This document shows, piece after piece, positions 1 through 45,129 of a stretch of DNA of 64,000 nt (within the stretch, counting starts at the first letter, position 1; every line of letters begins with the position of its first letter). Origin of the DNA: an uncultured candidatus Porisulfidus sp. (GTDB taxonomy: Bacteria > Pseudomonadota > Gammaproteobacteria > Poriferisulfidales > Poriferisulfidaceae); contig OY764335.1 in assembly GCA_963668445.1 (NCBI GenBank), positions 532,297-596,296 of the forward strand, written 5' to 3'. The position numbers and the translations under genes were made by a program. The notes below the pieces were generated by a model that saw nothing but the letters and a program-made list of their open reading frames with translations, was not told where the DNA came from and ran no database searches.

Positions 1-424
1 TGCACGCGCGCATCTGAAATATGTATGTTGTTCCGTTGGTGAGCCCGGTTACCCATTGATAGGATCTATAGTTGGGATAGTCTCTTCCGCTGCTCGGGAT
101 TGCTGTCCACCCGCCGAACGTCCCATTCTCCGTCTTGTACCTGTACTCCACACGCGAGATCGTTCCTAGGTTCTGGGTGAGAAGCTCTAGAACTAGAGCC
201 TTGTCTAGTTCATCAACAATATATGGCTGGTTCGGCGTGTTCGGCACTGCCGCCGATGCAGGAAGCAAGCAATCGGCAGCGGCGATCAGGATGAAGAAGG
301 CAGCGAGCCTACGGCCGGATCTGATGCAACTGAGATCGCGGATCCGGGCCCGCGGTCGGAGAATAGCCGCAGGCGATGCATTCCTACGGCGCAGGCTCGG
401 GGGGGGGGGGGGGGGGGGGGGCAT
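1..424 (-). CDS. Partial (N-terminal) secreted FN3-module surface protein, paralogous to the N-terminus of the giant adhesin. The ATG at 424-422 is followed directly by a C23 tract read in frame as poly-Pro, and the gene continues beyond the window start.
   Basis: Hand translation of the minus strand gives M-P7-PSLRRRNASPAAILRPRARIRDLSCIRSGRRLAAFFILIAAADCLLPASAAVP, a signal-peptide-like hydrophobic core. It continues ...RVEYRYKTENGTFGGWTAIPSSGRDYPNYRSYQWVTGLTNGTTYIFQMRA. This matches the FN3-like modules of the giant protein (YQYRQKEGSNNYGGWTDIGSS...GLTNGTQYTFKIRAVN). There is no stop codon before position 1. It is not in the ORF track because it has no stop in the window. Confidence 0.45.
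   Translation of the reverse strand, partial: MPPPPPPPPSLRRRNASPAAILRPRARIRDLSCIRSGRRLAAFFILIAAADCLLPASAAVPNTPNQPYIVDELDKALVLELLTQNLGTISRVEYRYKTENGTFGGWTAIPSSGRDYPNYRSYQWVTGLTNGTTYIFQMRAC
399..421. repeat. Homopolymeric G/C tract, 23 nt, lying in the first codons of the minus-strand surface protein gene. Putative slipped-strand phase-variation switch.
   Basis: 23 consecutive G on the plus strand, counted directly. The minus-strand ATG at 424-422 is immediately 5' of the C-run and is in frame with the downstream ORF at the current tract length. Confidence 0.8.
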
Positions 425-715
425 GCAAGTCCAATGTCAAGGGCAGGTTTAGGATAATGCAGGAACTTTAACACAATATTTGTTGAATGCCAAATTTGGC
501 GCGCAAGGCGGCGGCCCGCGCTCGCCGCAGGTGCGGGCTTGGCGGGCTCGGCTGGAAGACGAGCTTCGTTAGGCACCGGCGCTTGGAATCTTCCCGGCCC
601 CTTTCCGCCATGCGCTGAAGCCCATGGCGTGGCTCGATGCGCCCGTCCGGCGCGATTCCCAACGCTTCGTCGCTGTCCGGCTTCGGTCGCTCCGCTCCCT
701 GCGCCGAACAGCGAG

Positions 716-28124: not shown

Positions 28125-29711
28125 TTGATGCCCCTGAATCCGCGGCTTTTCCAAGCGCGCTTGGATGCGATGCGCACTTCTGGCGTGCGAGCGGAATTGC
28201 GCGACATCCGAATCGGCTTGGAGCGCGAAGCCTTGCGCGTGGATGCGGAAGCGAATTTGAGTCGGCGTCCACACCCCCCGGAACTGGGTGCAGCTCTGAC
28301 GCACTCCTACATCACGACGGATTACTCCGAGGCGATGCTTGAACTGATTACGCCGCCGGGCCGTCTGGACGAAACGCATGCCTTCCTCGCCGAACTTCAT
28401 CGCTATGCCTACGGCCACCTAGGCGGGGAGAATTTGTGGTGCGGGAGCATGCCCTGCGTGATTGCGGGCGACCCGGACATTCCGCTGGCGCGCTATGGGG
28501 AATCCAATGCCGGGCTCATGAAGACCGTTTACCGCCGCGGGCTCGGCTACCGCTATACCCGATCCATGCAGGTCATCGCCGGCCTGCATTTCAATTGCTC
28601 CATGCCGGACGGTTTCTGGCGGCACGAACAAGGCGGCGTGCCGGATCGTCCGGCGGTCTCCGAACGCTATTTCGGCGTGCTGCGCAATCTGCTGCGGTTC
28701 GGTTGGCTGGTCGCCTACCTGTGGGGCGCCTCGCCAGCGACCTGCCGGCGTTTTCTGGCCCGCAATCCCAGCGACTACGAGCTGGAATCCTTTACGCCGG
28801 GGACGTATTACGGCCCGTATGCCACATCGCTGCGGCTGGGGGGCATCGGCTACCAAAACAATTTGGGAGCCAGCACCGGCGTGCAGGCCGATTACAACAG
28901 TTTGGCCGGCTATATCCGGAGTCTGGAGCGGGCGACGAGCACGCCGTGCCCGGCCTACGAGCGCATCGGGGTGCGACAGGCGGACAAGTACCTGCAACTG
29001 AACGCGAACCGGCTGCAGATCGAAAACGAGTTCTACAGTTCGGTGCGCCCGAAATGCGTCCCGCACGGCAACGAGCGGCCGATTCGCGCGTTCCGGATGC
29101 GCGGTGTGGAATACGTGGAACTGCGTGCGCTGGACATCAACCCGTTCGAGCCTTGCGGCATCGATCGGACGGCGATGCGGTTTTTGACGGCACTGATCGT
29201 CTATTGCCTTTTGGATGACAGCCCCGACATGTCCGAAGCCGAGCAGCAGGAGGCGCATGGCAACATGCAGTGGGTCGCGCAGCGCGGGCGAGGTTCGGGC
29301 ATGATGCTGGAGCGCAGCGGCGCGGCTGTGGCGTTGCGCGATTGGGCGGAAGAATTGCTGAAGGACATCCGGCCGGTCTGCGCGCTCTTGGACGACGCGT
29401 ACGGGCAGGCGCATTTCGCCCAAGCTTGGCGGCAGCAGCAGAATCGCGTACGGGATGTGACGCAGACCTTGTCCGCGAAGATGGTGGAGGATATGCGGAT
29501 GCATGGCGAGGGCTATGTGGAATGGGTGCTGGCCCGTTCGCAAGCGCATCGAGAGTTCTTCATGCGGCAGCCTCCGGATGCGGCCCTGAACGCGCGGTTG
29601 GATCGGATGGCCGTGCAGTCGCATGTGCAGCAGCAGGCGATGGAAGCGGCGGAACGTGAGACGCCGATGTCGTTCGAGGACTATTTAGCGGCGTACGAGG
29701 CGCGGCGATGA
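28125..29711 (+). CDS. gshA: Glutamate--cysteine ligase (proteobacterial GshA type).
   Basis: About 525 aa with ...LEREALRV...; length and N-terminal pattern match E. coli-type GshA. Confidence 0.85.
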   Translation: MMPLNPRLFQARLDAMRTSGVRAELRDIRIGLEREALRVDAEANLSRRPHPPELGAALTHSYITTDYSEAMLELITPPGRLDETHAFLAELHRYAYGHLGGENLWCGSMPCVIAGDPDIPLARYGESNAGLMKTVYRRGLGYRYTRSMQVIAGLHFNCSMPDGFWRHEQGGVPDRPAVSERYFGVLRNLLRFGWLVAYLWGASPATCRRFLARNPSDYELESFTPGTYYGPYATSLRLGGIGYQNNLGASTGVQADYNSLAGYIRSLERATSTPCPAYERIGVRQADKYLQLNANRLQIENEFYSSVRPKCVPHGNERPIRAFRMRGVEYVELRALDINPFEPCGIDRTAMRFLTALIVYCLLDDSPDMSEAEQQEAHGNMQWVAQRGRGSGMMLERSGAAVALRDWAEELLKDIRPVCALLDDAYGQAHFAQAWRQQQNRVRDVTQTLSAKMVEDMRMHGEGYVEWVLARSQAHREFFMRQPPDAALNARLDRMAVQSHVQQQAMEAAERETPMSFEDYLAAYEARR

Positions 29712-29884: not shown

Positions 29885-32800
29885 TCAGAACATCAGTTCG
29901 ATTTTCAGATGGATGCTCAAGCCATTTGCCTCGTTGCTGGCGGCATGTTCGCCGAACACATCCGCGCGCCATTGCGCCATGGCGCCTGTCTCGCGCCCGA
30001 ACCGCACACCCAATCGCATTTTCGAGAGGTCGCTGCTGTGTTCCGCCTTGCCAAACCACTCGATCGGCCGCCTCAGCCACGGCGACCACATGCCGTATCC
30101 GACTTCCACTCCCATGGCTGCGGATTCATTCGGTGCTGATCGATCAGCCAGATCGGCGGCGTTCTCCTCCCACATCGTGGACGAGCTGTCGGTTGGCGCG
30201 CCCCATCGCGGGGACAGCATCAGGGACAGCCCGCGACCGTCCGCGTCTGGATTTTTCTTCAGCGTCACACTCACGCCCCGTTCTTCGTAGTCGCTCTCGG
30301 AATGTGCTGCCAGCCATCGCCCTTGTACATCCAGTGCCCAGCCGTCGACCACACTTTCGAAATACATGCCGCCGGCCAATTCCAGCCCGACTCCTTCGGA
30401 CCCGTTGCCACCATCGTAGCGGGCAAACGCCTGCGCGTACGGATTCGTGAAGTTGCCAGCCTCGTCCTCGATTGTCCGGGAATATTCCATTCCGGCACGG
30501 ACCTGATGCGCATTCGCTGTCAGGTCGTCAATCTCCAGAATCTCGCCATCGGCTTCCAGCTGGACGTATCCGGCATCGGCCATCAGTGCCCAGCGATGGT
30601 CCTTCCGCTCCGATTCCCCGAGTTCTCGGCGCAAGCCCACCGAAGCCATCTGCATCGATAGGTCTCTGTGCTCGGAATCCGCGCTGTCCATGCCGCTACG
30701 CAAGCTCTCCAATTCGATATCCCCCTCGCCTGCGCCCAGCATCATCCAAACCCCTACACCATCTCCCAAGTCCACATGGGCGTAAGGATGCACACTGGTC
30801 AGTTTCATCTCCATCGTGCCCGACCCGTTTAGACCTTGCTCGCCGAAAGAATAATCCGAATGCGCCCGACGATGCGATACCGCAACTCCGGCGATCCATT
30901 GTTTCTGAATGCGGGCATCAACGCCTACGTAGAACGAGCGCATGTCGCTTTCGTAATGGCCATTGCCATTGATTTCACCGGAGCTTTCCGTGTAGTCGCC
31001 CTGACCCCAGACGCTCCATTGCGCATGCGACGCTTCACTGCCCGCATTGAGGGAGAAGTCAAAAGTGCTTTCCAACAACCATTCGGTTGTGCTGATGCGA
31101 GAGCCCTCGTCCGTTACCGAGCCTGCTTTGAACCTTTCGATAACATCTAACGCGGCTGGCTGCGTCAAGGTTCGACGGTCGGATTCCGATGTGTCTGGCT
31201 CCAGTCCGGCCATACGAATCACGTCGTCGGGCGGCTTCGCAAACCTCCAATTTAGCACTTGCTGCGTACTTGCCATCATGCTGCCTGCGATTTGGCTCAA
31301 GGAGGCTTCCAAGACTGCCTTTTCCTCAATGGTATCTGTTTGCACCGCGATGGTAAAGGCGGCGGCGGCACTGTTGCCGTCGGCGTCGGTGGCGGTGTAG
31401 GTGTAGCCGGTGGCGGCCTGGGTGCCGCTGGGGGTGCCGGACAGGGTGCGGGTGGCGGCGTCGAAGCTCAGCCCGGGGGGCAGCGCCGGGGTGCCGCTGG
31501 TGCGCGCCAGCGCGTAGCTGAGCGCGCCGTTGCCGCCGCTGGCCAGCGGCAACGCCAAGTCCGTGATTCTGCGGCCTCGTGCATACACCTGGTCGGCAAT
31601 TGTGTCGTTCAAGGTTGGAGGGCCCAAGGGGGGGCTCTCTATAGATTCCTGCACCATGATGGTGAAGGTGGCGGTGGCGGCGTCGCCGTCGGCGTCGGTG
31701 GCGGTGTAGGTGTAGCCGGTGGCGGCCTGGGTGCCGCTGGGGGTGCCGGACAGGGTGCGGGTGGCGGCGTCGAAGCTCAGCCCGGGGGGCAGCGCCGGGG
31801 TGCCGCTGGTGCGCGCCAGCGCGTAGCTGAGCGCGCCGTTGCCGCCGGTCGCGGCCGGCAGCACCAGATCGGTGATCGGGCGGCCCTCGGAGTAGGCCTG
31901 GTCGGACGGCGCGGTCACGGCGGGCTGGCTGTTGGACTCGACCGCGAGGCTGAAGGTCGCCGAGTCGGTCTCGCCGTCGGCGTCGGTGACCGCGTACTTC
32001 AGGCTGGCGGTGGCGGCGCTGCCCGGCGTGGTGCCGGACAGGGTGCGGGTGGCGGCGGCGAACGACAGCCAGGCGGGCAGCGCGGTGCCGTCTTCCTTGG
32101 TCAGCGCGTAGCTCAGCGGGGCGTTGCCGCCGGTGGCGGCCGGCAGCTGGTGCGAGACGCTGCGCCCGGTGCCGTAGGTGAGGCCGGCCTGGGACGGCAG
32201 GTCCGGGGCGCTGTTCGCGGCCACCGCGATGGTGAAGGTGGCGGTGGCGGCGTCGCCGTCGGCGTCGGTGGCGGTGTAGGTGTAGCCGGTGGCGGCCTGG
32301 GTGCCGCTGGGGGTGCCGGACAGGGTGCGGGTGGCGGCGTCGAAGCTCAGCCCGGGGGGCAGCGCCGGGGTGCCGCTGGTGCGCGCCAGCGCGTAGCTGA
32401 GCGCGCCGTTGCCGCCGGTCGCGGCCGGCAGCACCAGATCGGTGATCGGGCGGCCCTCGGAGTAGGCCTGGTCGGACGGCGCGGTCACGGCGGGCTGGCT
32501 GTTGGACTCGACCGCGAGGCTGAAGGTCGCCGAGTCGGTCTCGCCGTCGGCGTCGGTGACCGCGTACTTCAGGCTGGCGGTGGCGGCGCTGCCCGGCGTG
32601 GTGCCGGACAGGGTGCGGGTGGCGGCGGCGAACGACAGCCAGGCGGGCAGCGCGGTGCCGTCTTCCTTGGTCAGCGCGTAGCTCAGCGGGGCGTTGCCGC
32701 CGGTGGCGGCCGGCAGCTGGTGCGAGACGCTGCGCCCGGTGCCGTAGGTGAGGCCGGCCTGGGACGGCAGGTCCGGGGCGCTGTTCGCGGCCACCGCGAT

Positions 32801-35800
32801 GGTGAAGGTGGCGGTGGCGGCGTCGCCGTCGGCGTCGGTGGCGGTGTAGGTGTAGCCGGTGGCGGCCTGGGTGCCGCTGGGGGTGCCGGACAGGGTGCGG
32901 GTGGCGGCGTCGAAGCTCAGCCCGGGGGGCAGCGCCGGGGTGCCGCTGGTGCGCGCCAGCGCGTAGCTGAGCGCGCCGTTGCCGCCGGTCGCGGCCGGCA
33001 GCACCAGATCGGTGATCGGGCGGCCCTCGGAGTAGGCCTGGTCGGACGGCGCGGTCACGGCGGGCTGGCTGTTGGACTCGACCGCGAGGCTGAAGGTCGC
33101 CGAGTCGGTCTCGCCGTCGGCGTCGGTGACCGCGTACTTCAGGCTGGCGGTGGCGGCGCTGCCCGGCGTGGTGCCGGACAGGGTGCGGGTGGCGGCGGCG
33201 AACGACAGCCAGGCGGGCAGCGCGGTGCCGTCTTCCTTGGTCAGCGCGTAGCTCAGCGGGGCGTTGCCGCCGGTGGCGGCCGGCAGCTGGTGCGAGACGC
33301 TGCGCCCGGTGCCGTAGGTGAGGCCGGCCTGGGACGGCAGGTCCGGGGCGCTGTTCGCGGCCACCGCGATGGTGAAGGTGGCGGTGGCGGCGTCGCCGTC
33401 GGCGTCGGTGGCGGTGTAGGTGTAGCCGGTGGCGGCCTGGGTGCCGCTGGGGGTGCCGGACAGGGTGCGGGTGGCGGCGTCGAAGCTCAGCCCGGGGGGC
33501 AGCGCCGGGGTGCCGCTGGTGCGCGCCAGCGCGTAGCTGAGCGCGCCGTTGCCGCCGGTCGCGGCCGGCAGCACCAGATCGGTGATCGGGCGGCCCTCGG
33601 AGTAGGCCTGGTCGGACGGCGCGGTCACGGCGGGCTGGCTGTTGGACTCGACCGCGAGGCTGAAGGTCGCCGAGTCGGTCTCGCCGTCGGCGTCGGTGAC
33701 CGCGTACTTCAGGCTGGCGGTGGCGGCGCTGCCCGGCGTGGTGCCGGACAGGGTGCGGGTGGCGGCGGCGAACGACAGCCAGGCGGGCAGCGCGGTGCCG
33801 TCTTCCTTGGTCAGCGCGTAGCTCAGCGGGGCGTTGCCGCCGGTGGCGGCCGGCAGCTGGTGCGAGACGCTGCGCCCGGTGCCGTAGGTGAGGCCGGCCT
33901 GGGACGGCAGGTCCGGGGCGCTGTTCGCGGCCACCGCGATGGTGAAGGTGGCGGTGGCGGCGTCGCCGTCGGCGTCGGTGGCGGTGTAGGTGTAGCCGGT
34001 GGCGGCCTGGGTGCCGCTGGGGGTGCCGGACAGGGTGCGGGTGGCGGCGTCGAAGCTCAGCCCGGGGGGCAGCGCCGGGGTGCCGCTGGTGCGCGCCAGC
34101 GCGTAGCTGAGCGCGCCGTTGCCGCCGGTCGCGGCCGGCAGCACCAGATCGGTGATCGGGCGGCCCTCGGAGTAGGCCTGGTCGGACGGCGCGGTCACGG
34201 CGGGCTGGCTGTTGGACTCGACCGCGAGGCTGAAGGTCGCCGAGTCGGTCTCGCCGTCGGCGTCGGTGACCGCGTACTTCAGGCTGGCGGTGGCGGCGCT
34301 GCCCGGCGTGGTGCCGGACAGGGTGCGGGTGGCGGCGGCGAACGACAGCCAGGCGGGCAGCGCGGTGCCGTCTTCCTTGGTCAGCGCGTAGCTCAGCGGG
34401 GCGTTGCCGCCGGTGGCGGCCGGCAGCTGGTGCGAGACGCTGCGCCCGGTGCCGTAGGTGAGGCCGGCCTGGGACGGCAGGTCCGGGGCGCTGTTCGCGG
34501 CCACCGCGATGGTGAAGGTGGCGGTGGCGGCGTCGCCGTCGGCGTCGGTGGCGGTGTAGGTGTAGCCGGTGGCGGCCTGGGTGCCGCTGGGGGTGCCGGA
34601 CAGGGTGCGGGTGGCGGCGTCGAAGCTCAGCCCGGGGGGCAGCGCCGGGGTGCCGCTGGTGCGCGCCAGCGCGTAGCTGAGCGCGCCGTTGCCGCCGGTC
34701 GCGGCCGGCAGCACCAGATCGGTGATCGGGCGGCCCTCGGAGTAGGCCTGGTCGGACGGCGCGGTCACGGCGGGCTGGCTGTTGGACTCGACCGCGAGGC
34801 TGAAGGTCGCCGAGTCGGTCTCGCCGTCGGCGTCGGTGACCGCGTACTTCAGGCTGGCGGTGGCGGCGCTGCCCGGCGTGGTGCCGGACAGGGTGCGGGT
34901 GGCGGCGGCGAACGACAGCCAGGCGGGCAGCGCGGTGCCGTCTTCCTTGGTCAGCGCGTAGCTCAGCGGGGCGTTGCCGCCGGTGGCGGCCGGCAGCTGG
35001 TGCGAGACGCTGCGCCCGGTGCCGTAGGTGAGGCCGGCCTGGGACGGCAGGTCCGGGGCGCTGTTCGCGGCCACCGCGATGGTGAAGGTGGCGGTGGCGG
35101 CGTCGCCGTCGGCGTCGGTGGCGGTGTAGGTGTAGCCGGTGGCGGCCTGGGTGCCGCTGGGGGTGCCGGACAGGGTGCGGGTGGCGGCGTCGAAGCTCAG
35201 CCCGGGGGGCAGCGCCGGGGTGCCGCTGGTGCGCGCCAGCGCGTAGCTGAGCGCGCCGTTGCCGCCGGTCGCGGCCGGCAGCACCAGATCGGTGATCGGG
35301 CGGCCCTCGGAGTAGGCCTGGTCGGACGGCGCGGTCACGGCGGGCTGGCTGTTGGACTCGACCGCGAGGCTGAAGGTCGCCGAGTCGGTCTCGCCGTCGG
35401 CGTCGGTGACCGCGTACTTCAGGCTGGCGGTGGCGGCGCTGCCCGGCGTGGTGCCGGACAGGGTGCGGGTGGCGGCGGCGAACGACAGCCAGGCGGGCAG
35501 CGCGGTGCCGTCTTCCTTGGTCAGCGCGTAGCTCAGCGGGGCGTTGCCGCCGGTGGCGGCCGGCAGCTGGTGCGAGACGCTGCGCCCGGTGCCGTAGGTG
35601 AGGCCGGCCTGGGACGGCAGGTCCGGGGCGCTGTTCGCGGCCACCGCGATGGTGAAGGTGGCGGTGGCGGCGTCGCCGTCGGCGTCGGTGGCGGTGTAGG
35701 TGTAGCCGGTGGCGGCCTGGGTGCCGCTGGGGGTGCCGGACAGGGTGCGGGTGGCGGCGTCGAAGCTCAGCCCGGGGGGCAGCGCCGGGGTGCCGCTGGT

Positions 35801-38800
35801 GCGCGCCAGCGCGTAGCTGAGCGCGCCGTTGCCGCCGGTCGCGGCCGGCAGCACCAGATCGGTGATCGGGCGGCCCTCGGAGTAGGCCTGGTCGGACGGC
35901 GCGGTCACGGCGGGCTGGCTGTTGGACTCGACCGCGAGGCTGAAGGTCGCCGAGTCGGTCTCGCCGTCGGCGTCGGTGACCGCGTACTTCAGGCTGGCGG
36001 TGGCGGCGCTGCCCGGCGTGGTGCCGGACAGGGTGCGGGTGGCGGCGGCGAACGACAGCCAGGCGGGCAGCGCGGTGCCGTCTTCCTTGGTCAGCGCGTA
36101 GCTCAGCGGGGCGTTGCCGCCGGTGGCGGCCGGCAGCTGGTGCGAGACGCTGCGCCCGGTGCCGTAGGTGAGGCCGGCCTGGGACGGCAGGTCCGGGGCG
36201 CTGTTCGCGGCCACCGCGATGGTGAAGGTGGCGGTGGCGGCGTCGCCGTCGGCGTCGGTGGCGGTGTAGGTGTAGCCGGTGGCGGCCTGGGTGCCGCTGG
36301 GGGTGCCGGACAGGGTGCGGGTGGCGGCGTCGAAGCTCAGCCCGGGGGGCAGCGCCGGGGTGCCGCTGGTGCGCGCCAGCGCGTAGCTGAGCGCGCCGTT
36401 GCCGCCGGTCGCGGCCGGCAGCACCAGATCGGTGATCGGGCGGCCCTCGGAGTAGGCCTGGTCGGACGGCGCGGTCACGGCGGGCTGGCTGTTGGACTCG
36501 ACCGCGAGGCTGAAGGTCGCCGAGTCGGTCTCGCCGTCGGCGTCGGTGACCGCGTACTTCAGGCTGGCGGTGGCGGCGCTGCCCGGCGTGGTGCCGGACA
36601 GGGTGCGGGTGGCGGCGGCGAACGACAGCCAGGCGGGCAGCGCGGTGCCGTCTTCCTTGGTCAGCGCGTAGCTCAGCGGGGCGTTGCCGCCGGTGGCGGC
36701 CGGCAGCTGGTGCGAGACGCTGCGCCCGGTGCCGTAGGTGAGGCCGGCCTGGGACGGCAGGTCCGGGGCGCTGTTCGCGGCCACCGCGATGGTGAAGGTG
36801 GCGGTGGCGGCGTCGCCGTCGGCGTCGGTGGCGGTGTAGGTGTAGCCGGTGGCGGCCTGGGTGCCGCTGGGGGTGCCGGACAGGGTGCGGGTGGCGGCGT
36901 CGAAGCTCAGCCCGGGGGGCAGCGCCGGGGTGCCGCTGGTGCGCGCCAGCGCGTAGCTGAGCGCGCCGTTGCCGCCGGTCGCGGCCGGCAGCACCAGATC
37001 GGTGATCGGGCGGCCCTCGGAGTAGGCCTGGTCGGACGGCGCGGTCACGGCGGGCTGGCTGTTGGACTCGACCGCGAGGCTGAAGGTCGCCGAGTCGGTC
37101 TCGCCGTCGGCGTCGGTGACCGCGTACTTCAGGCTGGCGGTGGCGGCGCTGCCCGGCGTGGTGCCGGACAGGGTGCGGGTGGCGGCGGCGAACGACAGCC
37201 AGGCGGGCAGCGCGGTGCCGTCTTCCTTGGTCAGCGCGTAGCTCAGCGGGGCGTTGCCGCCGGTGGCGGCCGGCAGCTGGTGCGAGACGCTGCGCCCGGT
37301 GCCGTAGGTGAGGCCGGCCTGGGACGGCAGGTCCGGGGCGCTGTTCGCGGCCACCGCGATGGTGAAGGTGGCGGTGGCGGCGTCGCCGTCGGCGTCGGTG
37401 GCGGTGTAGGTGTAGCCGGTGGCGGCCTGGGTGCCGCTGGGGGTGCCGGACAGGGTGCGGGTGGCGGCGTCGAAGCTCAGCCCGGGGGGCAGCGCCGGGG
37501 TGCCGCTGGTGCGCGCCAGCGCGTAGCTGAGCGCGCCGTTGCCGCCGGTCGCGGCCGGCAGCACCAGATCGGTGATCGGGCGGCCCTCGGAGTAGGCCTG
37601 GTCGGACGGCGCGGTCACGGCGGGCTGGCTGTTGGACTCGACCGCGAGGCTGAAGGTCGCCGAGTCGGTCTCGCCGTCGGCGTCGGTGACCGCGTACTTC
37701 AGGCTGGCGGTGGCGGCGCTGCCCGGCGTGGTGCCGGACAGGGTGCGGGTGGCGGCGGCGAACGACAGCCAGGCGGGCAGCGCGGTGCCGTCTTCCTTGG
37801 TCAGCGCGTAGCTCAGCGGGGCGTTGCCGCCGGTGGCGGCCGGCAGCTGGTGCGAGACGCTGCGCCCGGTGCCGTAGGTGAGGCCGGCCTGGGACGGCAG
37901 GTCCGGGGCGCTGTTCGCGGCCACCGCGATGGTGAAGGTGGCGGTGGCGGCGTCGCCGTCGGCGTCGGTGGCGGTGTAGGTGTAGCCGGTGGCGGCCTGG
38001 GTGCCGCTGGGGGTGCCGGACAGGGTGCGGGTGGCGGCGTCGAAGCTCAGCCCGGGGGGCAGCGCCGGGGTGCCGCTGGTGCGCGCCAGCGCGTAGCTGA
38101 GCGCGCCGTTGCCGCCGGTCGCGGCCGGCAGCACCAGATCGGTGATCGGGCGGCCCTCGGAGTAGGCCTGGTCGGACGGCGCGGTCACGGCGGGCTGGCT
38201 GTTGGACTCGACCGCGAGGCTGAAGGTCGCCGAGTCGGTCTCGCCGTCGGCGTCGGTGACCGCGTACTTCAGGCTGGCGGTGGCGGCGCTGCCCGGCGTG
38301 GTGCCGGACAGGGTGCGGGTGGCGGCGGCGAACGACAGCCAGGCGGGCAGCGCGGTGCCGTCTTCCTTGGTCAGCGCGTAGCTCAGCGGGGCGTTGCCGC
38401 CGGTGGCGGCCGGCAGCTGGTGCGAGACGCTGCGCCCGGTGCCGTAGGTGAGGCCGGCCTGGGACGGCAGGTCCGGGGCGCTGTTCGCGGCCACCGCGAT
38501 GGTGAAGGTGGCGGTGGCGGCGTCGCCGTCGGCGTCGGTGGCGGTGTAGGTGTAGCCGGTGGCGGCCTGGGTGCCGCTGGGGGTGCCGGACAGGGTGCGG
38601 GTGGCGGCGTCGAAGCTCAGCCCGGGGGGCAGCGCCGGGGTGCCGCTGGTGCGCGCCAGCGCGTAGCTGAGCGCGCCGTTGCCGCCGGTCGCGGCCGGCA
38701 GCACCAGATCGGTGATCGGGCGGCCCTCGGAGTAGGCCTGGTCGGACGGCGCGGTCACGGCGGGCTGGCTGTTGGACTCGACCGCGAGGCTGAAGGTCGC

Positions 38801-41800
38801 CGAGTCGGTCTCGCCGTCGGCGTCGGTGACCGCGTACTTCAGGCTGGCGGTGGCGGCGCTGCCCGGCGTGGTGCCGGACAGGGTGCGGGTGGCGGCGGCG
38901 AACGACAGCCAGGCGGGCAGCGCGGTGCCGTCTTCCTTGGTCAGCGCGTAGCTCAGCGGGGCGTTGCCGCCGGTGGCGGCCGGCAGCTGGTGCGAGACGC
39001 TGCGCCCGGTGCCGTAGGTGAGGCCGGCCTGGGACGGCAGGTCCGGGGCGCTGTTCGCGGCCACCGCGATGGTGAAGGTGGCGGTGGCGGCGTCGCCGTC
39101 GGCGTCGGTGGCGGTGTAGGTGTAGCCGGTGGCGGCCTGGGTGCCGCTGGGGGTGCCGGACAGGGTGCGGGTGGCGGCGTCGAAGCTCAGCCCGGGGGGC
39201 AGCGCCGGGGTGCCGCTGGTGCGCGCCAGCGCGTAGCTGAGCGCGCCGTTGCCGCCGGTCGCGGCCGGCAGCACCAGATCGGTGATCGGGCGGCCCTCGG
39301 AGTAGGCCTGGTCGGACGGCGCGGTCACGGCGGGCTGGCTGTTGGACTCGACCGCGAGGCTGAAGGTCGCCGAGTCGGTCTCGCCGTCGGCGTCGGTGAC
39401 CGCGTACTTCAGGCTGGCGGTGGCGGCGCTGCCCGGCGTGGTGCCGGACAGGGTGCGGGTGGCGGCGGCGAACGACAGCCAGGCGGGCAGCGCGGTGCCG
39501 TCTTCCTTGGTCAGCGCGTAGCTCAGCGGGGCGTTGCCGCCGGTGGCGGCCGGCAGCTGGTGCGAGACGCTGCGCCCGGTGCCGTAGGTGAGGCCGGCCT
39601 GGGACGGCAGGTCCGGGGCGCTGTTCGCGGCCACCGCGATGGTGAAGGTGGCGGTGGCGGCGTCGCCGTCGGCGTCGGTGGCGGTGTAGGTGTAGCCGGT
39701 GGCGGCCTGGGTGCCGCTGGGGGTGCCGGACAGGGTGCGGGTGGCGGCGTCGAAGCTCAGCCCGGGGGGCAGCGCCGGGGTGCCGCTGGTGCGCGCCAGC
39801 GCGTAGCTGAGCGCGCCGTTGCCGCCGGTCGCGGCCGGCAGCACCAGATCGGTGATCGGGCGGCCCTCGGAGTAGGCCTGGTCGGACGGCGCGGTCACGG
39901 CGGGCTGGCTGTTGGACTCGACCGCGAGGCTGAAGGTCGCCGAGTCGGTCTCGCCGTCGGCGTCGGTGACCGCGTACTTCAGGCTGGCGGTGGCGGCGCT
40001 GCCCGGCGTGGTGCCGGACAGGGTGCGGGTGGCGGCGGCGAACGACAGCCAGGCGGGCAGCGCGGTGCCGTCTTCCTTGGTCAGCGCGTAGCTCAGCGGG
40101 GCGTTGCCGCCGGTGGCGGCCGGCAGCTGGTGCGAGACGCTGCGCCCGGTGCCGTAGGTGAGGCCGGCCTGGGACGGCAGGTCCGGGGCGCTGTTCGCGG
40201 CCACCGCGATGGTGAAGGTGGCGGTGGCGGCGTCGCCGTCGGCGTCGGTGGCGGTGTAGGTGTAGCCGGTGGCGGCCTGGGTGCCGCTGGGGGTGCCGGA
40301 CAGGGTGCGGGTGGCGGCGTCGAAGCTCAGCCCGGGGGGCAGCGCCGGGGTGCCGCTGGTGCGCGCCAGCGCGTAGCTGAGCGCGCCGTTGCCGCCGGTC
40401 GCGGCCGGCAGCACCAGATCGGTGATCGGGCGGCCCTCGGAGTAGGCCTGGTCGGACGGCGCGGTCACGGCGGGCTGGCTGTTGGACTCGACCGCGAGGC
40501 TGAAGGTCGCCGAGTCGGTCTCGCCGTCGGCGTCGGTGACCGCGTACTTCAGGCTGGCGGTGGCGGCGCTGCCCGGCGTGGTGCCGGACAGGGTGCGGGT
40601 GGCGGCGGCGAACGACAGCCAGGCGGGCAGCGCGGTGCCGTCTTCCTTGGTCAGCGCGTAGCTCAGCGGGGCGTTGCCGCCGGTGGCGGCCGGCAGCTGG
40701 TGCGAGACGCTGCGCCCGGTGCCGTAGGTGAGGCCGGCCTGGGACGGCAGGTCCGGGGCGCTGTTCGCGGCCACCGCGATGGTGAAGGTGGCGGTGGCGG
40801 CGTCGCCGTCGGCGTCGGTGGCGGTGTAGGTGTAGCCGGTGGCGGCCTGGGTGCCGCTGGGGGTGCCGGACAGGGTGCGGGTGGCGGCGTCGAAGCTCAG
40901 CCCGGGGGGCAGCGCCGGGGTGCCGCTGGTGCGCGCCAGCGCGTAGCTGAGCGCGCCGTTGCCGCCGGTCGCGGCCGGCAGCACCAGATCGGTGATCGGG
41001 CGGCCCTCGGAGTAGGCCTGGTCGGACGGCGCGGTCACGGCGGGCTGGCTGTTGGACTCGACCGCGAGGCTGAAGGTCGCCGAGTCGGTCTCGCCGTCGG
41101 CGTCGGTGACCGCGTACTTCAGGCTGGCGGTGGCGGCGCTGCCCGGCGTGGTGCCGGACAGGGTGCGGGTGGCGGCGGCGAACGACAGCCAGGCGGGCAG
41201 CGCGGTGCCGTCTTCCTTGGTCAGCGCGTAGCTCAGCGGGGCGTTGCCGCCGGTGGCGGCCGGCAGCTGGTGCGAGACGCTGCGCCCGGTGCCGTAGGTG
41301 AGGCCGGCCTGGGACGGCAGGTCCGGGGTTAGCCTCAGTGGCGTTGCTTTTGCTGTATCTGAAGGGGGGCTGCCACCGGTCGAATTCACCGCACGAATCT
41401 GAAAGGAGTATTCCACCCCGGTGGTCAAGTTGCCAACCGTGTGGCTTGTGGTATTTGCTCCGCTTTTGTTGATATTTCCCCAGATCTCGAATACGCTATC
41501 CGTTTCGGTCTTTTTCCGTATTTGGTATGTCGTAATGTTCGTGTCGGACGGATCCGTCCATTCGAGCAAGACCTGCTGATCGCCTGCAGTGGCCGCGAAG
41601 CCGCTCGGTTTCGCCGGCCTCGGCCTCGGTGTCACCGACACCTCGTCCGATTCTGTGCCATTGCCCACTGGGTTGACCGCTCTGATCTTGAACGTGTATT
41701 GGGTTCCGCTGGTCAATCCGGTGACCGTGTGGCTTGTGGTGGTCGCGCTGCTGGAGCCGATATCCGTCCACCCGCCATAATTGTTCGAGCCTTCTTTTTG

Positions 41801-42895
41801 CCGGTACTGGTATTTCGAAATGCTTGCGTTGGACGGATTGGTCCATCCCAAGAACACCCGAGTTCCATCAAGTGCTTGTGCGGTGAAATTGCTTGGTTTG
41901 CCCGGTGCCGTCAGATTCGCCATTACTGTAGATGAAGAACCAGCACCCGCTGGATTCACTGCACGGAGTTGAAACGTATATTCCGTCTCATTGGTCAATC
42001 CGGTGATCGTGTGGCTTGTGGTGGTTGCGCTGCTGGAGCCGATATCCGTCCATACGCCATAATTGTTTGAGCCTTCTTTTTGCCGGTACTGGTATTTCGA
42101 AATGGTTGTGTCCGACGGATCCGTCCATTTCAATGCCACGCTCTGATTGCCTACTGTCGCGGCAAGGTTGGTCGGGGCCGCTGGCGGAGGCGTTGCCGTT
42201 GCTGTTGCTTCATCCGATTCCAGCCCATCGCCGACTGAGTTGACCGCTCTGATCTTGAACGTGTATTGGGTTCCGTTGGTCAATCCGGTGACCGTGTGGG
42301 TCGTGGTGGTCGCGCTGCTGGAGCCGATATCCGTCCATCCGCCGTAATTGTTCGAGCCTTCCTTTTGCCGGTACTGGTATTTCGAAATGGTTGTGTCCGA
42401 CGGATCCGTCCATTTCAAGTTCATGCTTTTGTCAGCCGGCGTCACGGTGAAGTCGGTTGGTTTGTCCGGCGATGCCGACATGGAAACCGAGTTGGAGCCT
42501 AGGGAGAGTCCGCAGGATGATGATGTATGTTTAAGCCAATTGCTGTCTTTTGTGAACGATGACAGGTTCATGGTGTTGGTGCCGATCTTGACTTTCACGT
42601 CAGCGGTTTTCAGGTTGTTCGGATCCTTATTGAACTGGATCCAGCATTGGCCAGAAGATTGGAAAAAGTCTTTTATTTCGTATGTGGTCCCCCGGAAATC
42701 AAAATCGTCATCGCTTAAACTCCCATATGTGATGATGAGTGTGCTGTATCCTAGAGAATTGCCGAAACCCTGTGCTGCATTTAACGTGGCACTCCAGAAG
42801 AGTCCTGAATTGGCCGCGTATGTCGGTCGCGCTTCTCCTGTCAGTAGCACTGCAAGCAGCAATAAGAGATGTACTGCCTTGGGTTCCTTGCACAT
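29885..42895 (-). CDS. Giant (about 4336 aa) secreted repeat adhesin. Order: signal peptide, FN3-like modules, 17 tandem copies of a 190-aa double He_PIG/'putative Ig' unit, then a C-terminal autotransporter-like beta-barrel.
   Basis: Signal peptide MCKEPKAVHLLLLLAVLLTGEARPTYA/AN. Repeated motif LPxGLSFDAATRTLSGTP. The C-terminal 400 aa have alternating hydrophobic beta-strand patterning (AQWSVWGQGDY...), are Gly/aromatic-rich and end ...HLKIELMF. The start was moved from the ORF-track 43090 to the ATG at 42895, ahead of the signal peptide. Confidence 0.85.
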   Translation of the reverse strand: MCKEPKAVHLLLLLAVLLTGEARPTYAANSGLFWSATLNAAQGFGNSLGYSTLIITYGSLSDDDFDFRGTTYEIKDFFQSSGQCWIQFNKDPNNLKTADVKVKIGTNTMNLSSFTKDSNWLKHTSSSCGLSLGSNSVSMSASPDKPTDFTVTPADKSMNLKWTDPSDTTISKYQYRQKEGSNNYGGWTDIGSSSATTTTHTVTGLTNGTQYTFKIRAVNSVGDGLESDEATATATPPPAAPTNLAATVGNQSVALKWTDPSDTTISKYQYRQKEGSNNYGVWTDIGSSSATTTSHTITGLTNETEYTFQLRAVNPAGAGSSSTVMANLTAPGKPSNFTAQALDGTRVFLGWTNPSNASISKYQYRQKEGSNNYGGWTDIGSSSATTTSHTVTGLTSGTQYTFKIRAVNPVGNGTESDEVSVTPRPRPAKPSGFAATAGDQQVLLEWTDPSDTNITTYQIRKKTETDSVFEIWGNINKSGANTTSHTVGNLTTGVEYSFQIRAVNSTGGSPPSDTAKATPLRLTPDLPSQAGLTYGTGRSVSHQLPAATGGNAPLSYALTKEDGTALPAWLSFAAATRTLSGTTPGSAATASLKYAVTDADGETDSATFSLAVESNSQPAVTAPSDQAYSEGRPITDLVLPAATGGNGALSYALARTSGTPALPPGLSFDAATRTLSGTPSGTQAATGYTYTATDADGDAATATFTIAVAANSAPDLPSQAGLTYGTGRSVSHQLPAATGGNAPLSYALTKEDGTALPAWLSFAAATRTLSGTTPGSAATASLKYAVTDADGETDSATFSLAVESNSQPAVTAPSDQAYSEGRPITDLVLPAATGGNGALSYALARTSGTPALPPGLSFDAATRTLSGTPSGTQAATGYTYTATDADGDAATATFTIAVAANSAPDLPSQAGLTYGTGRSVSHQLPAATGGNAPLSYALTKEDGTALPAWLSFAAATRTLSGTTPGSAATASLKYAVTDADGETDSATFSLAVESNSQPAVTAPSDQAYSEGRPITDLVLPAATGGNGALSYALARTSGTPALPPGLSFDAATRTLSGTPSGTQAATGYTYTATDADGDAATATFTIAVAANSAPDLPSQAGLTYGTGRSVSHQLPAATGGNAPLSYALTKEDGTALPAWLSFAAATRTLSGTTPGSAATASLKYAVTDADGETDSATFSLAVESNSQPAVTAPSDQAYSEGRPITDLVLPAATGGNGALSYALARTSGTPALPPGLSFDAATRTLSGTPSGTQAATGYTYTATDADGDAATATFTIAVAANSAPDLPSQAGLTYGTGRSVSHQLPAATGGNAPLSYALTKEDGTALPAWLSFAAATRTLSGTTPGSAATASLKYAVTDADGETDSATFSLAVESNSQPAVTAPSDQAYSEGRPITDLVLPAATGGNGALSYALARTSGTPALPPGLSFDAATRTLSGTPSGTQAATGYTYTATDADGDAATATFTIAVAANSAPDLPSQAGLTYGTGRSVSHQLPAATGGNAPLSYALTKEDGTALPAWLSFAAATRTLSGTTPGSAATASLKYAVTDADGETDSATFSLAVESNSQPAVTAPSDQAYSEGRPITDLVLPAATGGNGALSYALARTSGTPALPPGLSFDAATRTLSGTPSGTQAATGYTYTATDADGDAATATFTIAVAANSAPDLPSQAGLTYGTGRSVSHQLPAATGGNAPLSYALTKEDGTALPAWLSFAAATRTLSGTTPGSAATASLKYAVTDADGETDSATFSLAVESNSQPAVTAPSDQAYSEGRPITDLVLPAATGGNGALSYALARTSGTPALPPGLSFDAATRTLSGTPSGTQAATGYTYTATDADGDAATATFTIAVAANSAPDLPSQAGLTYGTGRSVSHQLPAATGGNAPLSYALTKEDGTALPAWLSFAAATRTLSGTTPGSAATASLKYAVTDADGETDSATFSLAVESNSQPAVTAPSDQAYSEGRPITDLVLPAATGGNGALSYALARTSGTPALPPGLSFDAATRTLSGTPSGTQAATGYTYTATDADGDAATATFTIAVAANSAPDLPSQAGLTYGTGRSVSHQLPAATGGNAPLSYALTKEDGTALPAWLSFAAATRTLSGTTPGSAATASLKYAVTDADGETDSATFSLAVESNSQPAVTAPSDQAYSEGRPITDLVLPAATGGNGALSYALARTSGTPALPPGLSFDAATRTLSGTPSGTQAATGYTYTATDADGDAATATFTIAVAANSAPDLPSQAGLTYGTGRSVSHQLPAATGGNAPLSYALTKEDGTALPAWLSFAAATRTLSGTTPGSAATASLKYAVTDADGETDSATFSLAVESNSQPAVTAPSDQAYSEGRPITDLVLPAATGGNGALSYALARTSGTPALPPGLSFDAATRTLSGTPSGTQAATGYTYTATDADGDAATATFTIAVAANSAPDLPSQAGLTYGTGRSVSHQLPAATGGNAPLSYALTKEDGTALPAWLSFAAATRTLSGTTPGSAATASLKYAVTDADGETDSATFSLAVESNSQPAVTAPSDQAYSEGRPITDLVLPAATGGNGALSYALARTSGTPALPPGLSFDAATRTLSGTPSGTQAATGYTYTATDADGDAATATFTIAVAANSAPDLPSQAGLTYGTGRSVSHQLPAATGGNAPLSYALTKEDGTALPAWLSFAAATRTLSGTTPGSAATASLKYAVTDADGETDSATFSLAVESNSQPAVTAPSDQAYSEGRPITDLVLPAATGGNGALSYALARTSGTPALPPGLSFDAATRTLSGTPSGTQAATGYTYTATDADGDAATATFTIAVAANSAPDLPSQAGLTYGTGRSVSHQLPAATGGNAPLSYALTKEDGTALPAWLSFAAATRTLSGTTPGSAATASLKYAVTDADGETDSATFSLAVESNSQPAVTAPSDQAYSEGRPITDLVLPAATGGNGALSYALARTSGTPALPPGLSFDAATRTLSGTPSGTQAATGYTYTATDADGDAATATFTIAVAANSAPDLPSQAGLTYGTGRSVSHQLPAATGGNAPLSYALTKEDGTALPAWLSFAAATRTLSGTTPGSAATASLKYAVTDADGETDSATFSLAVESNSQPAVTAPSDQAYSEGRPITDLVLPAATGGNGALSYALARTSGTPALPPGLSFDAATRTLSGTPSGTQAATGYTYTATDADGDAATATFTIAVAANSAPDLPSQAGLTYGTGRSVSHQLPAATGGNAPLSYALTKEDGTALPAWLSFAAATRTLSGTTPGSAATASLKYAVTDADGETDSATFSLAVESNSQPAVTAPSDQAYSEGRPITDLVLPAATGGNGALSYALARTSGTPALPPGLSFDAATRTLSGTPSGTQAATGYTYTATDADGDAATATFTIAVAANSAPDLPSQAGLTYGTGRSVSHQLPAATGGNAPLSYALTKEDGTALPAWLSFAAATRTLSGTTPGSAATASLKYAVTDADGETDSATFSLAVESNSQPAVTAPSDQAYSEGRPITDLVLPAATGGNGALSYALARTSGTPALPPGLSFDAATRTLSGTPSGTQAATGYTYTATDADGDAATATFTIAVAANSAPDLPSQAGLTYGTGRSVSHQLPAATGGNAPLSYALTKEDGTALPAWLSFAAATRTLSGTTPGSAATASLKYAVTDADGETDSATFSLAVESNSQPAVTAPSDQAYSEGRPITDLVLPAATGGNGALSYALARTSGTPALPPGLSFDAATRTLSGTPSGTQAATGYTYTATDADGDAATATFTIMVQESIESPPLGPPTLNDTIADQVYARGRRITDLALPLASGGNGALSYALARTSGTPALPPGLSFDAATRTLSGTPSGTQAATGYTYTATDADGNSAAAAFTIAVQTDTIEEKAVLEASLSQIAGSMMASTQQVLNWRFAKPPDDVIRMAGLEPDTSESDRRTLTQPAALDVIERFKAGSVTDEGSRISTTEWLLESTFDFSLNAGSEASHAQWSVWGQGDYTESSGEINGNGHYESDMRSFYVGVDARIQKQWIAGVAVSHRRAHSDYSFGEQGLNGSGTMEMKLTSVHPYAHVDLGDGVGVWMMLGAGEGDIELESLRSGMDSADSEHRDLSMQMASVGLRRELGESERKDHRWALMADAGYVQLEADGEILEIDDLTANAHQVRAGMEYSRTIEDEAGNFTNPYAQAFARYDGGNGSEGVGLELAGGMYFESVVDGWALDVQGRWLAAHSESDYEERGVSVTLKKNPDADGRGLSLMLSPRWGAPTDSSSTMWEENAADLADRSAPNESAAMGVEVGYGMWSPWLRRPIEWFGKAEHSSDLSKMRLGVRFGRETGAMAQWRADVFGEHAASNEANGLSIHLKIELMF
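31640..41335. repeat. Seventeen nucleotide-identical tandem repeats of 570 bp inside the giant adhesin gene. A divergent partial copy lies at each end.
   Basis: Sequence blocks 570 nt apart are character-for-character identical; for example the lines at 32221 and 33361 continue identically across the whole array. Each unit encodes DLPSQAGLTYGTGRSV...TFTIAVAANSAP. Confidence 0.9.
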
Positions 42896-42936
42896 GTCCT
42901 GCAACCATTTCTCAATGGCCTTACGACAGGGCCGAT

Positions 42937-42960
42937 GGGGGGGGGGGGGGGGGGGGGGGG
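42937..42960. repeat. Homopolymeric G/C tract, 24 nt, 41 nt upstream of the giant adhesin start codon. Putative phase-variation switch.
   Basis: 24 consecutive G on the plus strand, counted directly. It lies between the adhesin ATG (42895) and the AT-rich upstream region. Confidence 0.8.
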
Positions 42961-43949
42961 CTGTAATGTTAGGAATGCGCCGCCTGCTGCCATTCGCTGG
43001 CCGGGCCGGATCAATGCTGGCCAAAGCCTTCCGGAAATCCATGCGCGCTAAGCCTTCCCGTGAAAAGCGGAGAATTTGCTCTGGCACCAATTGCGCGGGT
43101 TATAATCCATAGAGATAGCATCTCCACTATGTTTGAATTCTTGTTGTGGTTAATGTGGGTTTGTTCGTTACTTTCTGTTATGTATTTATTAGTTACATCA
43201 CATTTTTGCATGCATGTTTAGGTATCTTATAGCAGATTCCCACAATTTGTCAACAACTGCAAGGCAAATGTCAAACCAAAGCCGGAACGACTATGGCGAG
43301 AAAACTAAGACTTCCCCGAAGGTCCAAAGTGTCAGAAGACTCGGATTCGAAGCGTCAAGTCGGTGTTGAGTTTCAAGGACTGGAGACGGATTTGGAGACT
43401 TAAGGCCGCAGGATTCGACTTGTATCCTTCCTGCCATGATTACGTGCGGATGGTCATAATCAATCTATGGATGACTGCATGAGCATGCTTGATCGGACGC
43501 ACGAAACCGTGCATGGCATACATCGGAGCGTATGCCCACAAGGACGGCATCGCCATCGCCCGGGCGCTGTCGGTCGCAATGGGTGGCATCGCCCGTCATT
43601 CCATGAGTCTTTGCCGCGACGTTCACGATACGGGAGGCTTTGTCGAATGCTGCAGTCGAAGTGTCGCGGCCGGTCTGGGGAACCCTTGATCATGTTCCAG
43701 AGTGCCGGAAAATTCCTAGTAGCAAGACGAAAGCAGCTCGCGACGAACGTGTGATCTTGCAGCAGCCAATCCGCACATAGCAACTTGATCAATCATCGTC
43801 ATTAGCAGTGGCACCCTGACTTGGTGCAAACCTCCGCATTCTCCACTACAAGACATGGTATCATGAAATGCTGCATCGCAGAGCTTTCGCCCGACATCGG
43901 CGGAGGTTACGAGCCGGTCACAACATAGCAGCACAATTATTCTCCAACG

Positions 43950-44351
43950 ATGAGCTACTGCATTCTGGACACGCGGGGACTTTGGATTGAGCGCGTTGAG
44001 CAGAGTTCGGAATGCCTGTCGCTGGCCTTTGCGCAGGCGAACATCGAAAAAATCATGGACAATGCAGAACAGCGCACATTGTGGACGCAGGCGGGAGCGC
44101 TTGAAATCTGGACGGCGCAGATGGTGCCGGACCTGCCGGAGGCTCCGTTCGTGATTGCGCATTCGGGTCTGGACGACGGCTTGTACACGCAACGCGACAT
44201 GATTCGCATCCCGATGGATGCTTCGGGGACGGTCGCGATGGAGTTGCAATGCGCGGGGCTGCCGGAGCCTTGGCGCATCGAAGGGGAACGCGTGCGGCTG
44301 CGCTTGGATGGAAACCCGCGCTATGTGCGCCATTTGGAGCCGGAAGCCTAA
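43950..44351 (+). CDS. Hypothetical protein immediately upstream of djlA.
   Basis: 133-aa ORF ending 4 nt before the djlA start. No recognisable motif. Confidence 0.4.
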   Translation: MSYCILDTRGLWIERVEQSSECLSLAFAQANIEKIMDNAEQRTLWTQAGALEIWTAQMVPDLPEAPFVIAHSGLDDGLYTQRDMIRIPMDASGTVAMELQCAGLPEPWRIEGERVRLRLDGNPRYVRHLEPEA

Positions 44352-44355
44352 GCCC

Positions 44356-45129
44356 ATGCCCAACCTGCTCGGCACCGTCCTGAAGACGATCCTCTTCATG
44401 CTGATCGGCGGTTTTTTTCTGGGCAGCTGGGGCATTCTTCTCGGCGCCATGGTGGGCTTCATGTCGGGCATGAACAGCGAACGGGTGCGCGTCTCGCGCA
44501 GCGACGAATTCTTCCGTGTCACGTTCCGGATGATGGGGCACATGGCCAAAGCGGACGGCCGGGTTTCTGAGCAGGAGATCGCATGCGCCCGGCAGGCGAT
44601 GCATTCCTTCGGGCTGGATCCGGTGCAGCGGGACCGTGCCATCGACTACTTCCGGGAAGGGGCGCAGGAGGAGGTAGATCTGGCCGCGGAATTGCGCGAA
44701 GTGGCGCAGATTTGCCGCCGCGACGTCCGGCTGGCGGCGATGTTCGTGGAAATCCAAGTCGCGCTGGCCTGCGCGGATGGCGAGTTCTCGCCGCCAGAGC
44801 AGGAAATCGTTCGGGCCTGCTGCACGACATTGGGATTTTCGGAAGAACAGGCGCAGGTCTTTGTGGAGCATCATCTCGGCGGCGGAGACGCTGGGACGGA
44901 TGCGGGCATGGCGCGCGGGCAGGAACTGGAGCGGGCGTACGGCCTGCTGGAAGTGGAGGCTTCGGCCTCGATGGAAGAGGTGCAGCGGGCATACGGCCGC
45001 AAGATGAAGGGCTTCCATCCGGACAAATTGGCATCCAAGGGCCTGCCGAAGGAATTCATGGATTTCGCGACCGAGCAGACCAAGAAGTTCACGAAGGCGT
45101 ACCAAGTCATCAAGCAGGCGCGGAGGTGA
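44356..45129 (+). CDS. djlA: DnaJ-like co-chaperone DjlA: TM anchor, TerB-like domain and C-terminal J domain.
   Basis: N-terminal TM segment (MPNLLGTVLKTILFMLIGGFFLGSWGILLGAMVGF). C-terminal J-domain with the HPD motif (...AYGRKMKGFHPDKLASKGLP...). Confidence 0.8.
   Translation: MPNLLGTVLKTILFMLIGGFFLGSWGILLGAMVGFMSGMNSERVRVSRSDEFFRVTFRMMGHMAKADGRVSEQEIACARQAMHSFGLDPVQRDRAIDYFREGAQEEVDLAAELREVAQICRRDVRLAAMFVEIQVALACADGEFSPPEQEIVRACCTTLGFSEEQAQVFVEHHLGGGDAGTDAGMARGQELERAYGLLEVEASASMEEVQRAYGRKMKGFHPDKLASKGLPKEFMDFATEQTKKFTKAYQVIKQARR

Follow-up and report, generated by a model that had tools for sequence, protein, structure and literature searches.

Phase variation by simple repeats is known mostly from pathogens. 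In Neisseria, the poly-G tract of pilC and the repeats of opa and nalP sit in signal-peptide coding regions or in open reading frames (ORFs) and switch expression by changing the frame. The meningococcal SSR genes include hmbR and hpuA (PMC5084427, PMC3786947). In Bordetella, the autotransporter gene bapC (BP2738/BB2033) carries C/G tracts in its 5'-coding region, with a length of 14 in B. pertussis and of 35 in B. bronchiseptica RB50, and a G10-G13 tract of this gene varied within single colonies, one of the lengths restoring the frame (PMC1891110). Poly-C tracts of 20-22 are also found at fim2 and fim3 of B. bronchiseptica (PMC1891110).

We examined a window of 64 kb, that is, the whole stretch of DNA that was analysed, from a sulfur oxidiser, as yet uncultured, that is related to the sponge symbiont Ca. 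Porisulfidus; within this window, a simple-repeat device occurs at least twice. The main finding is a homopolymeric tract upstream of a giant adhesin gene on the minus strand, reported by an earlier note on this DNA as a 24-nt G/C tract located 41 nt from the adhesin start. Both statements agree with what we find: 24 uninterrupted G occupy exactly positions 42937..42960 of the plus strand (C24 in gene sense), and the spacer 42896..42936 separates them from the minus-strand ATG at 42895. This is probably a genuine and functional homopolymeric contingency tract, and the most likely role of the run is that of a common slipped-strand on/off switch, as known from Bordetella and Neisseria. The tract thus belongs to a well-known kind, and what is unusual is its organism, a relative of a sponge symbiont.

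The closest precedent is bapC, which likewise is an autotransporter gene of a high-GC proteobacterium and of which the coding sequence (CDS) starts with mononucleotide tracts of C/G in its 5' part. The differences are that the sequence relationship between the two proteins goes no further than the beta-barrel superfamily, that the adhesin tract precedes or sits in the signal-peptide region, that length variation has been shown for bapC alone, and that the host of the adhesin is an uncultured relative of a sponge symbiont. The pilC-type loci of Neisseria share the placement of the repeat in a part of the ORF that is cleaved off, where in-frame changes are harmless and out-of-frame ones turn the protein off, a design that is matched exactly by the second tract of the window (locus 2, see below); in contrast, the neisserial tracts are usually 8-17 nt long, there is no homology, and the host association is different. 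At fim2/fim3/fimX and porA/opc, long poly-C tracts precede surface-structure genes and tune expression through their length, but these tracts are located between promoter elements or activator sites, whereas the adhesin run is not flanked by a -35/-10 pair. Finally, in Campylobacter jejuni, slippage in G/C homopolymers, located within genes or between them, switches surface-structure genes (PMC8355987), but in a low-GC genome, with tracts of 8-13 nt, and mainly in glycosylation genes.

Rarity and authenticity of the tract

The GC content of the window is 63.6%, and only two mononucleotide runs in it are longer than 7 nt, namely, the G24 run at the adhesin gene and a G23 run at 399..421. Judging from the base composition, we estimate that runs of G or C of at least 23 nt are expected at ~3e-7 per 64 kb, which excludes a chance origin of the 24-nt run. 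Hypermutability is associated with G/C tracts of ~8-9 nt or more, a length that the G24 tract exceeds.

Long homopolymers are the weakest point of every sequencing platform, and the run, or the join across it, might be a sequencing or assembly artefact, or else its length might be badly wrong; we consider this highly unlikely. Some long-read metagenome assemblers operate in homopolymer-compressed space. The MetaMDBG assembler, for one, was used on a related sponge data set (PMC12988363). The artefact explanation can draw on a scan of public metagenomes for ATG followed by C21, in which most of the 120 loci detected were at contig ends or in low-complexity, eukaryote-like sequence, and none of these loci represented a recurring design of ATG, poly-C and signal peptide. 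However, artefacts from the poly-G read tails of two-colour sequencing terminate contigs and do not bridge unique sequence, whereas both runs in the window are internal, are flanked by unique sequence on both sides, lie precisely at gene starts and are in frame. Furthermore, each run adjoins a copy of the same 46-nt element (E, see below), and the adhesin gene together with its leader forms a coherent unit with a promoter-like site. Records of the adhesin protein come from a single contig of 1.76 Mb, and this contig, along with the resolved 9.6-kb perfect tandem repeat, indicates a long-read assembly. It appears safe to assume that the run exists in the organism, with an uncertainty of +/-1-2 in the exact assembled length. 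Gene calls and presence/absence calls in MAGs depend on the length of such runs, which assemblers cannot reliably determine.

The adhesin and its genomic setting

Read from the proximal ATG, the adhesin CDS spans 29885..42895 of the minus strand and encodes 4336 amino acids (aa) followed by the stop codon. The protein consists, in this order, of a signal peptide, an N-terminal domain of ~135 aa, four FN3 domains, He_PIG repeats, and a beta-barrel that ends in ...ELMF. The repeats form a tandem array (31700..41270, minus strand) of ~16.8 units of 570 nt, each encoding 190 aa with two He_PIG Ig-like domains. The GC content of the array is 77%, and there are zero mismatches between successive copies, which implies a very recent expansion or homogenisation; the copy number is likely to be variable, and the assembled count is uncertain. 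The repeat region also yields a 3357-aa shadow ORF on the plus strand (31259-41332). The autotransporter beta-domain (PF03797; 30.4 bits, with a cut-off of 26) maps to 30398..31012 of the minus strand, and its homologues were detected with scores up to E = 3e-90. The protein begins with a Sec signal peptide, continues with a repetitive passenger, and closes with a beta-barrel and an aromatic residue at its very C-terminus. The predicted gene product is therefore a type Va autotransporter, of which the passenger is built from Ig-like and FN3 domains. The label of giant adhesin is a fair one. Contingency loci encode surface or host-interaction products, and the signal peptide, the four FN3 domains, the He_PIG repeats and PF03797 identify the adhesin as such a protein.

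The ~135-aa N-terminal domain (42487-42895, minus strand) gave no match in Pfam. It recurs, often in multiple copies, in 34 large secreted proteins from metagenomes (P0033-P0066), and may represent an undescribed domain family. One of these proteins, P0034 (44% identity), combines the domain with FN3 domains and leucine-rich repeats, and three others (P0052, P0056 and P0062) look autotransporter-like, by eye, in their C-terminal sequences.

Eukaryote-like surface proteins with FN3 or Ig-like domains are thought to mediate recognition between symbionts and the sponge host (e.g., PMC11706023, PMC6506613). If the tracts vary, the symbiont population would be a permanent mixture of cells with and without giant surface proteins, with a bearing on the escape of symbionts from phagocytosis or phage attack and on colonisation of the host.

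To the left of the adhesin gene, there are genes for an adenylylsulfate-reductase-like flavoprotein, KatG and HemY, and to the right, for a DjlA-like protein, FAA hydrolase, IlvA, MetK and AhcY. The closest genome that we found is the MAG of a related Ca. Porisulfidus (L001), with an FAA hydrolase that is 83% identical. Porisulfidus is counted among the known sponge symbionts (PMC12988363). The synteny with L001 is clean on both flanks, and the genes at 28125..29711 and 43950..44351 are adjacent in L001, with an overlap of 4 nt (L001 8769-8772); the segment 29712..43949, which includes the adhesin gene, the tract and the AT-rich leader, is therefore a lineage-specific insertion of 14.2 kb. The GC content of the 5' part of this island is 50-53%, compared with 77% in the repeat region and 63.6% in the window. 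The interval from the adhesin leader to the syntenic gene that follows (43290-43700) contains nothing but short ORFs, including one of 36 aa (MARKLRLPRRSKV...) and one of 66 aa (...HKDGIAIARALSVAMGGIARHS...), which look like decayed gene fragments. Elsewhere in the window, a gene of the Fic/DOC family (Fic_N, Fic and a SoFic-like C-terminal part; 19080-20084, plus strand) lies in a pocket of 46% GC amid surroundings of 60-65%, which suggests that it is another acquired element.

Searches for a related locus in genome, metagenome and protein collections detected none. Exact look-ups of the AprA-like ORF and of the 4385-aa adhesin returned no record, and a word-indexed protein search found nothing for the N-termini of the adhesin and of the locus-2 protein; a full HMMER scan retrieved the adhesin protein itself and the 34 remote relatives of the N-terminal domain. 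Among 35 homologues of this domain, none contains a homopolymeric amino-acid run in the first 120 residues, and in six loci encoding homologues of the beta-domain (33-40% identity; L081-L083 and L204-L206, ~90 kb), no run exceeds 7 nt. Given its absence from both sets of homologues, we rejected the possibility that the tract is a family trait. The entire adhesin island is missing in L001, of which the 20 kb contain no run of 9 nt or more. The absence of the tract from the detectable homologues and from L001 is what one would expect of a contingency repeat that evolved recently, and not of a conserved structural element. In several of the metagenomic homologues (L204, 2-11678; L205, 3-4618; L082, 7626-11851), the beta-domain ORF is preceded by adjacent ORFs on the same strand that carry Calx-beta, SWM-repeat or PKD-like domains. 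These sets give the impression of large adhesin genes that frameshifts or the gene caller have broken up, and at the breaks between the ORFs there is no long homopolymer to explain them.

Transcription and translation across the tract

In the region from 42700 to 44000, the minus strand has a single sigma-70-like site, TTGACA-18-TAAGAT, located in an AT-rich stretch at 43224..43253, ~264 nt upstream of the tract, so that the tract is predicted to be transcribed. The earlier note had expected the tract to lie in the promoter or in the 5'-UTR. The run is indeed inside the predicted transcript, but the promoter part of this expectation did not hold: no -35/-10 pair flanks the run, and no -10-like or other promoter-like element could be read in the 41-nt spacer ahead of ATG 42895. 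With no hexamer pair around the run and the single promoter-like site so far upstream, a promoter-spacer switch of the fim/porA type was rejected. A structured leader or a known RNA element was rejected as well, given that Rfam yielded no match at E <= 1 in either tract region, and that the predicted leader folds leave the tract unpaired and are not unusual in stability (z = +2.8 and -1.7).

Upstream of ATG 42895, the reading frame remains open through the run up to ATG 43042, GTG 43087 and TTG 43090. This open stretch, which begins at 43090, crosses the run and enters the signal peptide, amounts to 65 codons, for which we estimate a chance probability of ~0.1. From ATG 43042, the in-frame extension (42961..43042, minus strand) starts with MDFRKALASIDPARPANGSRRRIPNIT, the codons of the tract are A-P7-H, and the frame runs into the adhesin as MDFRKALASIDPARPANGSRRRIPNIT-A-P7-H-RPCRKAIEKWLQD-MCKEP. 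The upstream in-frame ATG (MDFRK...) and the poly-proline reading that had been proposed are both present, and the proposed toggling of the frame by changes of +/-1 was reproduced in silico. Starting from ATG 43042, only tract lengths of 3n, such as the present C24, reach the adhesin; with a run of 22 or 25, the frame closes at codons 39-40, and with one of 23 or 26, at codons 66-67. The repeat is accordingly placed where its length would alter expression, both by its position in the predicted transcript and by the 3n frame from 43042.

Under the mechanism that we favour, the 24-bp G:C run would gain and lose bases during replication by slipped-strand mispairing, and, with the run inside the adhesin transcript, each change in length would alter the expression of the giant autotransporter. 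Translation from ATG 43042 would read the run as prolines in an N-terminal extension that is removed along with the signal peptide. The adhesin would be in frame only at run lengths of 3n, and translation at the other lengths would terminate after 39-67 codons.

The run is very probably a slippage-driven expression switch of some kind. We consider it reasonably probable that it is a hypermutable contingency tract, for which the translational version, from ATG 43042, is the most likely one; the chance that the run is a translational frame switch from ATG 43042 appears to fall slightly short of even. We infer that the length of the run varies and that adhesin expression switches with it. The earlier proposal of a slipped-strand contingency tract thus gains support from the sequence features of the locus, namely, a run beyond chance, a predicted surface protein, and the location in a transcribed leader or a 5' ORF.

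The main competitor is a graded effect from the 5'-UTR, which we regard as unlikely but as less so than any of the other alternatives. Under this explanation, the adhesin starts at ATG 42895, and slippage has a modulatory or leaky effect rather than an ON/OFF one, possibly through the fate of the upstream ORF (uORF) that starts at 43042 (fused, stopping early or overlapping), through spacing, or through mRNA stability. ATG 42895 opens a canonical 29-aa Sec-type signal peptide, MCKEPKAVHLLLLLAVLLTGEARPTYA|ANSG, with an n-region of 8 residues as read from the sequence. The cleavage region of this signal peptide aligns with that of P0034 (...SPSARA|ANSEPFWSATL; 44% identity), and the mature N-terminus, ANSGLFWSATL, aligns with P0034 and P0038 directly past their signal peptides. 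In addition, the off-frame uORFs from 43042 end either 24 nt (8 codons) before ATG 42895 or 47 nt past it, so that re-initiation would be possible, and the unpaired state of the tract in the predicted leader folds is also compatible with a role in the 5'-UTR. However, ATG 42895 is preceded at only 1 nt by AGGA, a spacing at which a Shine-Dalgarno sequence is unusable, a translated tract exists at locus 2 of the same genome, and the gene as called in the public record (P0032; 4385 aa, with no difference from the window) begins at ATG 43042. The latter start has a Shine-Dalgarno-like GGGAAGG at a spacing of 9 nt (-6.5 kcal/mol), compared with -4.0 kcal/mol at a spacing of 0 for ATG 42895, with the caveat that this scoring is only weakly discriminating, as many reference ORFs of the window also score poorly. 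On balance, we lean, not strongly, towards 43042 over 42895, and we infer that 43042 is the start in use.

Several considerations weigh against the frame switch from 43042. A pre-sequence of 77 aa with seven prolines is unusual. The in-frame status of the run has a prior of one in three, and the assembled length may be off by one base. Furthermore, RNA-polymerase slippage at 23-24 bases could blur a clean ON/OFF state.

A second tract and an oppositely oriented start module

The second homopolymeric tract (locus 2; G23 on the plus strand at 399..421, C23 in gene sense) lies 42.5 kb from the adhesin tract, in the 5' part (1..424, minus strand) of a gene that extends beyond the window and encodes another secreted FN3 protein. 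Both tract genes encode secreted proteins with FN3 domains of the same subtype (..TGLTNGT.Y.F..RA..). In gene sense, the sequence of locus 2 reads ATG(424-422)-C23-G..., encoding M P8 SLRRRNASPAAILRPRARIRDLSCIRSGRR-LAAFFILIAAADCLLPASA-AVPNTP, followed by the FN3 domain. There is a stop 5 codons upstream of this ATG and no other ATG, GTG or TTG before the hydrophobic core, so that the abutting ATG is the only usable start ahead of the signal peptide, and the tract must be translated. Among the lengths examined in silico, only 23 (3n+2) leaves the frame open; 21, 22, 24 and 25 stop after 12-46 codons. A promoter-like site, TTGGCA-17-(TG)TAAAGT, is located at 465..493 of the minus strand, ~35 nt upstream of the ATG-C23. 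In addition, the 17 nt that abut this ATG (TTGACATTGGACTTGCA) show a marginal similarity to 43274-43258, a score reached in 7 of 300 shuffles.

As judged from this layout, locus 2 has the classical design of translational phase variation. It provides independent evidence that such tracts are functional parts of genes in this genome, and a C23 right after the only possible start of a secreted FN3 protein implies that the organism uses a design in which ATG is followed by a homopolymer. The contingency interpretation of the adhesin tract is thereby further backed by a case in which C23 directly follows the ATG, a signal peptide is present, and there is no alternative start. The case of the adhesin tract is strengthened by this clearer second example and, at the same time, complicated by an inverted copy of the start module, described next.

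Both tracts adjoin a 46-nt element, E (TAGGAATGC..CGCCTGC.GC.ATTC...GGATC). At locus 2, E is in gene sense (341..386, minus strand), 12 nt downstream of C23 and within the coding region for the leader peptide. At the adhesin locus, E (TAGGAATGCGCCGCCTGCTGCCATTC...GGATC) occupies 42970..43012 of the plus strand, on the far side of the tract and 9 nt from it. The two copies are homologous and in inverted orientation (score 39, reached in 0 of 300 shuffles). A search with the E motif (22 specified bases) produced 0 matches in genome contigs and 0 in metagenome contigs.

Together with E, the plus strand of the adhesin locus contains an entire start module that is antisense to the gene and leads to a dead end (42935..43051): ATG(42935-42937)-G23-CNV-RNAPPAAIRWPGRI..., with the stop at 43049-43051, for a total of 38 codons pointing away from the adhesin gene. 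The counterpart at locus 2 (290-424, minus strand) is ATG-C23-SLRR-RNASPAAILRPRARI..., and the two modules share the frame over the first ~20 codons past the homopolymer. The oppositely oriented module may be an inverted partial duplication. Given that the run is part of a start module with the opposite orientation, the adhesin tract may not have evolved for the adhesin.

The extreme version of this argument is that a module of ATG, homopolymer and E was inserted or inverted at the adhesin locus as a dead end, and that the run there, although hypermutable, did not evolve to control the adhesin. The parallel between the two modules and their common frame are what such a relic would look like, there is no gene on the plus strand after the antisense module, and the 14.2-kb adhesin island, which has remnants of decayed ORFs upstream, was inserted recently. 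We nevertheless find a relic distinctly improbable. Long homopolymers that are not under selection shrink fast, yet the adhesin run is as long as the functional one, and on the minus strand the inverted module can be read without a stop, in the same frame as the adhesin. Moreover, the adhesin module has G where locus 2 has C, with the result that, at either locus, the sense strand of the intact gene carries the tract as poly-C, and both tracts are currently in frame; the same polarity of the tracts at the two loci argues for selection relative to the adhesin.

We also considered whether the module could be part of an invertible DNA switch. Only imperfect arms of 7-12 nt flank the antisense module, and 42961-43960 contains no recombinase-like ORF; with no convincing flanking inverted repeats and no recombinase gene nearby, such a switch appears unlikely. 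If flipped, the segment 42935-43012 would be in frame with the adhesin signal peptide, for which the prior is one in three. The idea that the copies of E are att-like direct repeats of an island was rejected, because synteny sets the borders of the island at 29712 and 43949.

A run of 24 G is capable of folding into a quadruplex. Conceivably, the tract could play a structural or recombinational role, with a G-quadruplex of the G24 template strand or an i-motif of the C-rich strand blocking or tuning transcription, or with the tract serving as a hot spot for swapping the 5' ends of surface genes. The occurrence of the module at two loci in different orientations, with a part of it inside a third gene, hints at DNA exchange. 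However, nothing specific supports such a role: neither silent cassettes nor genes for a recombinase turned up in the vicinity, the tract regions contain no structured RNA or known RNA family, and a pure homopolymer is a far better substrate for slippage than a designed G4 motif. We find this explanation scarcely credible, the least so of those considered, and retain slippage as the preferred one.

The third occurrence is a copy of the E core (GCAGGCGATGCATTCCTTCGG...) at 44592..44621 of the plus strand, within the CDS of the DjlA-like (TerB+DnaJ) protein. It matches 26 of the 30 nt of the sequence directly past the locus-2 tract (score 38, a value reached in 0 of 300 shuffles), and the L001 orthologue of the DjlA-like gene is not similar at this spot. 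It is tempting to view the combination of ATG, a G:C homopolymer of ~23 nt and the E leader as a start cassette that can move or invert and that serves the surface-protein genes of this symbiont lineage, a possibility that we think very doubtful. Such a cassette would occur once in sense orientation (locus 2), once in antisense (the adhesin locus), and in part inside a neighbouring housekeeping gene. Should it exist, and should the tracts mediate exchange of 5' ends, two stochastic switches, rearrangement and slippage, would be stacked on one another.
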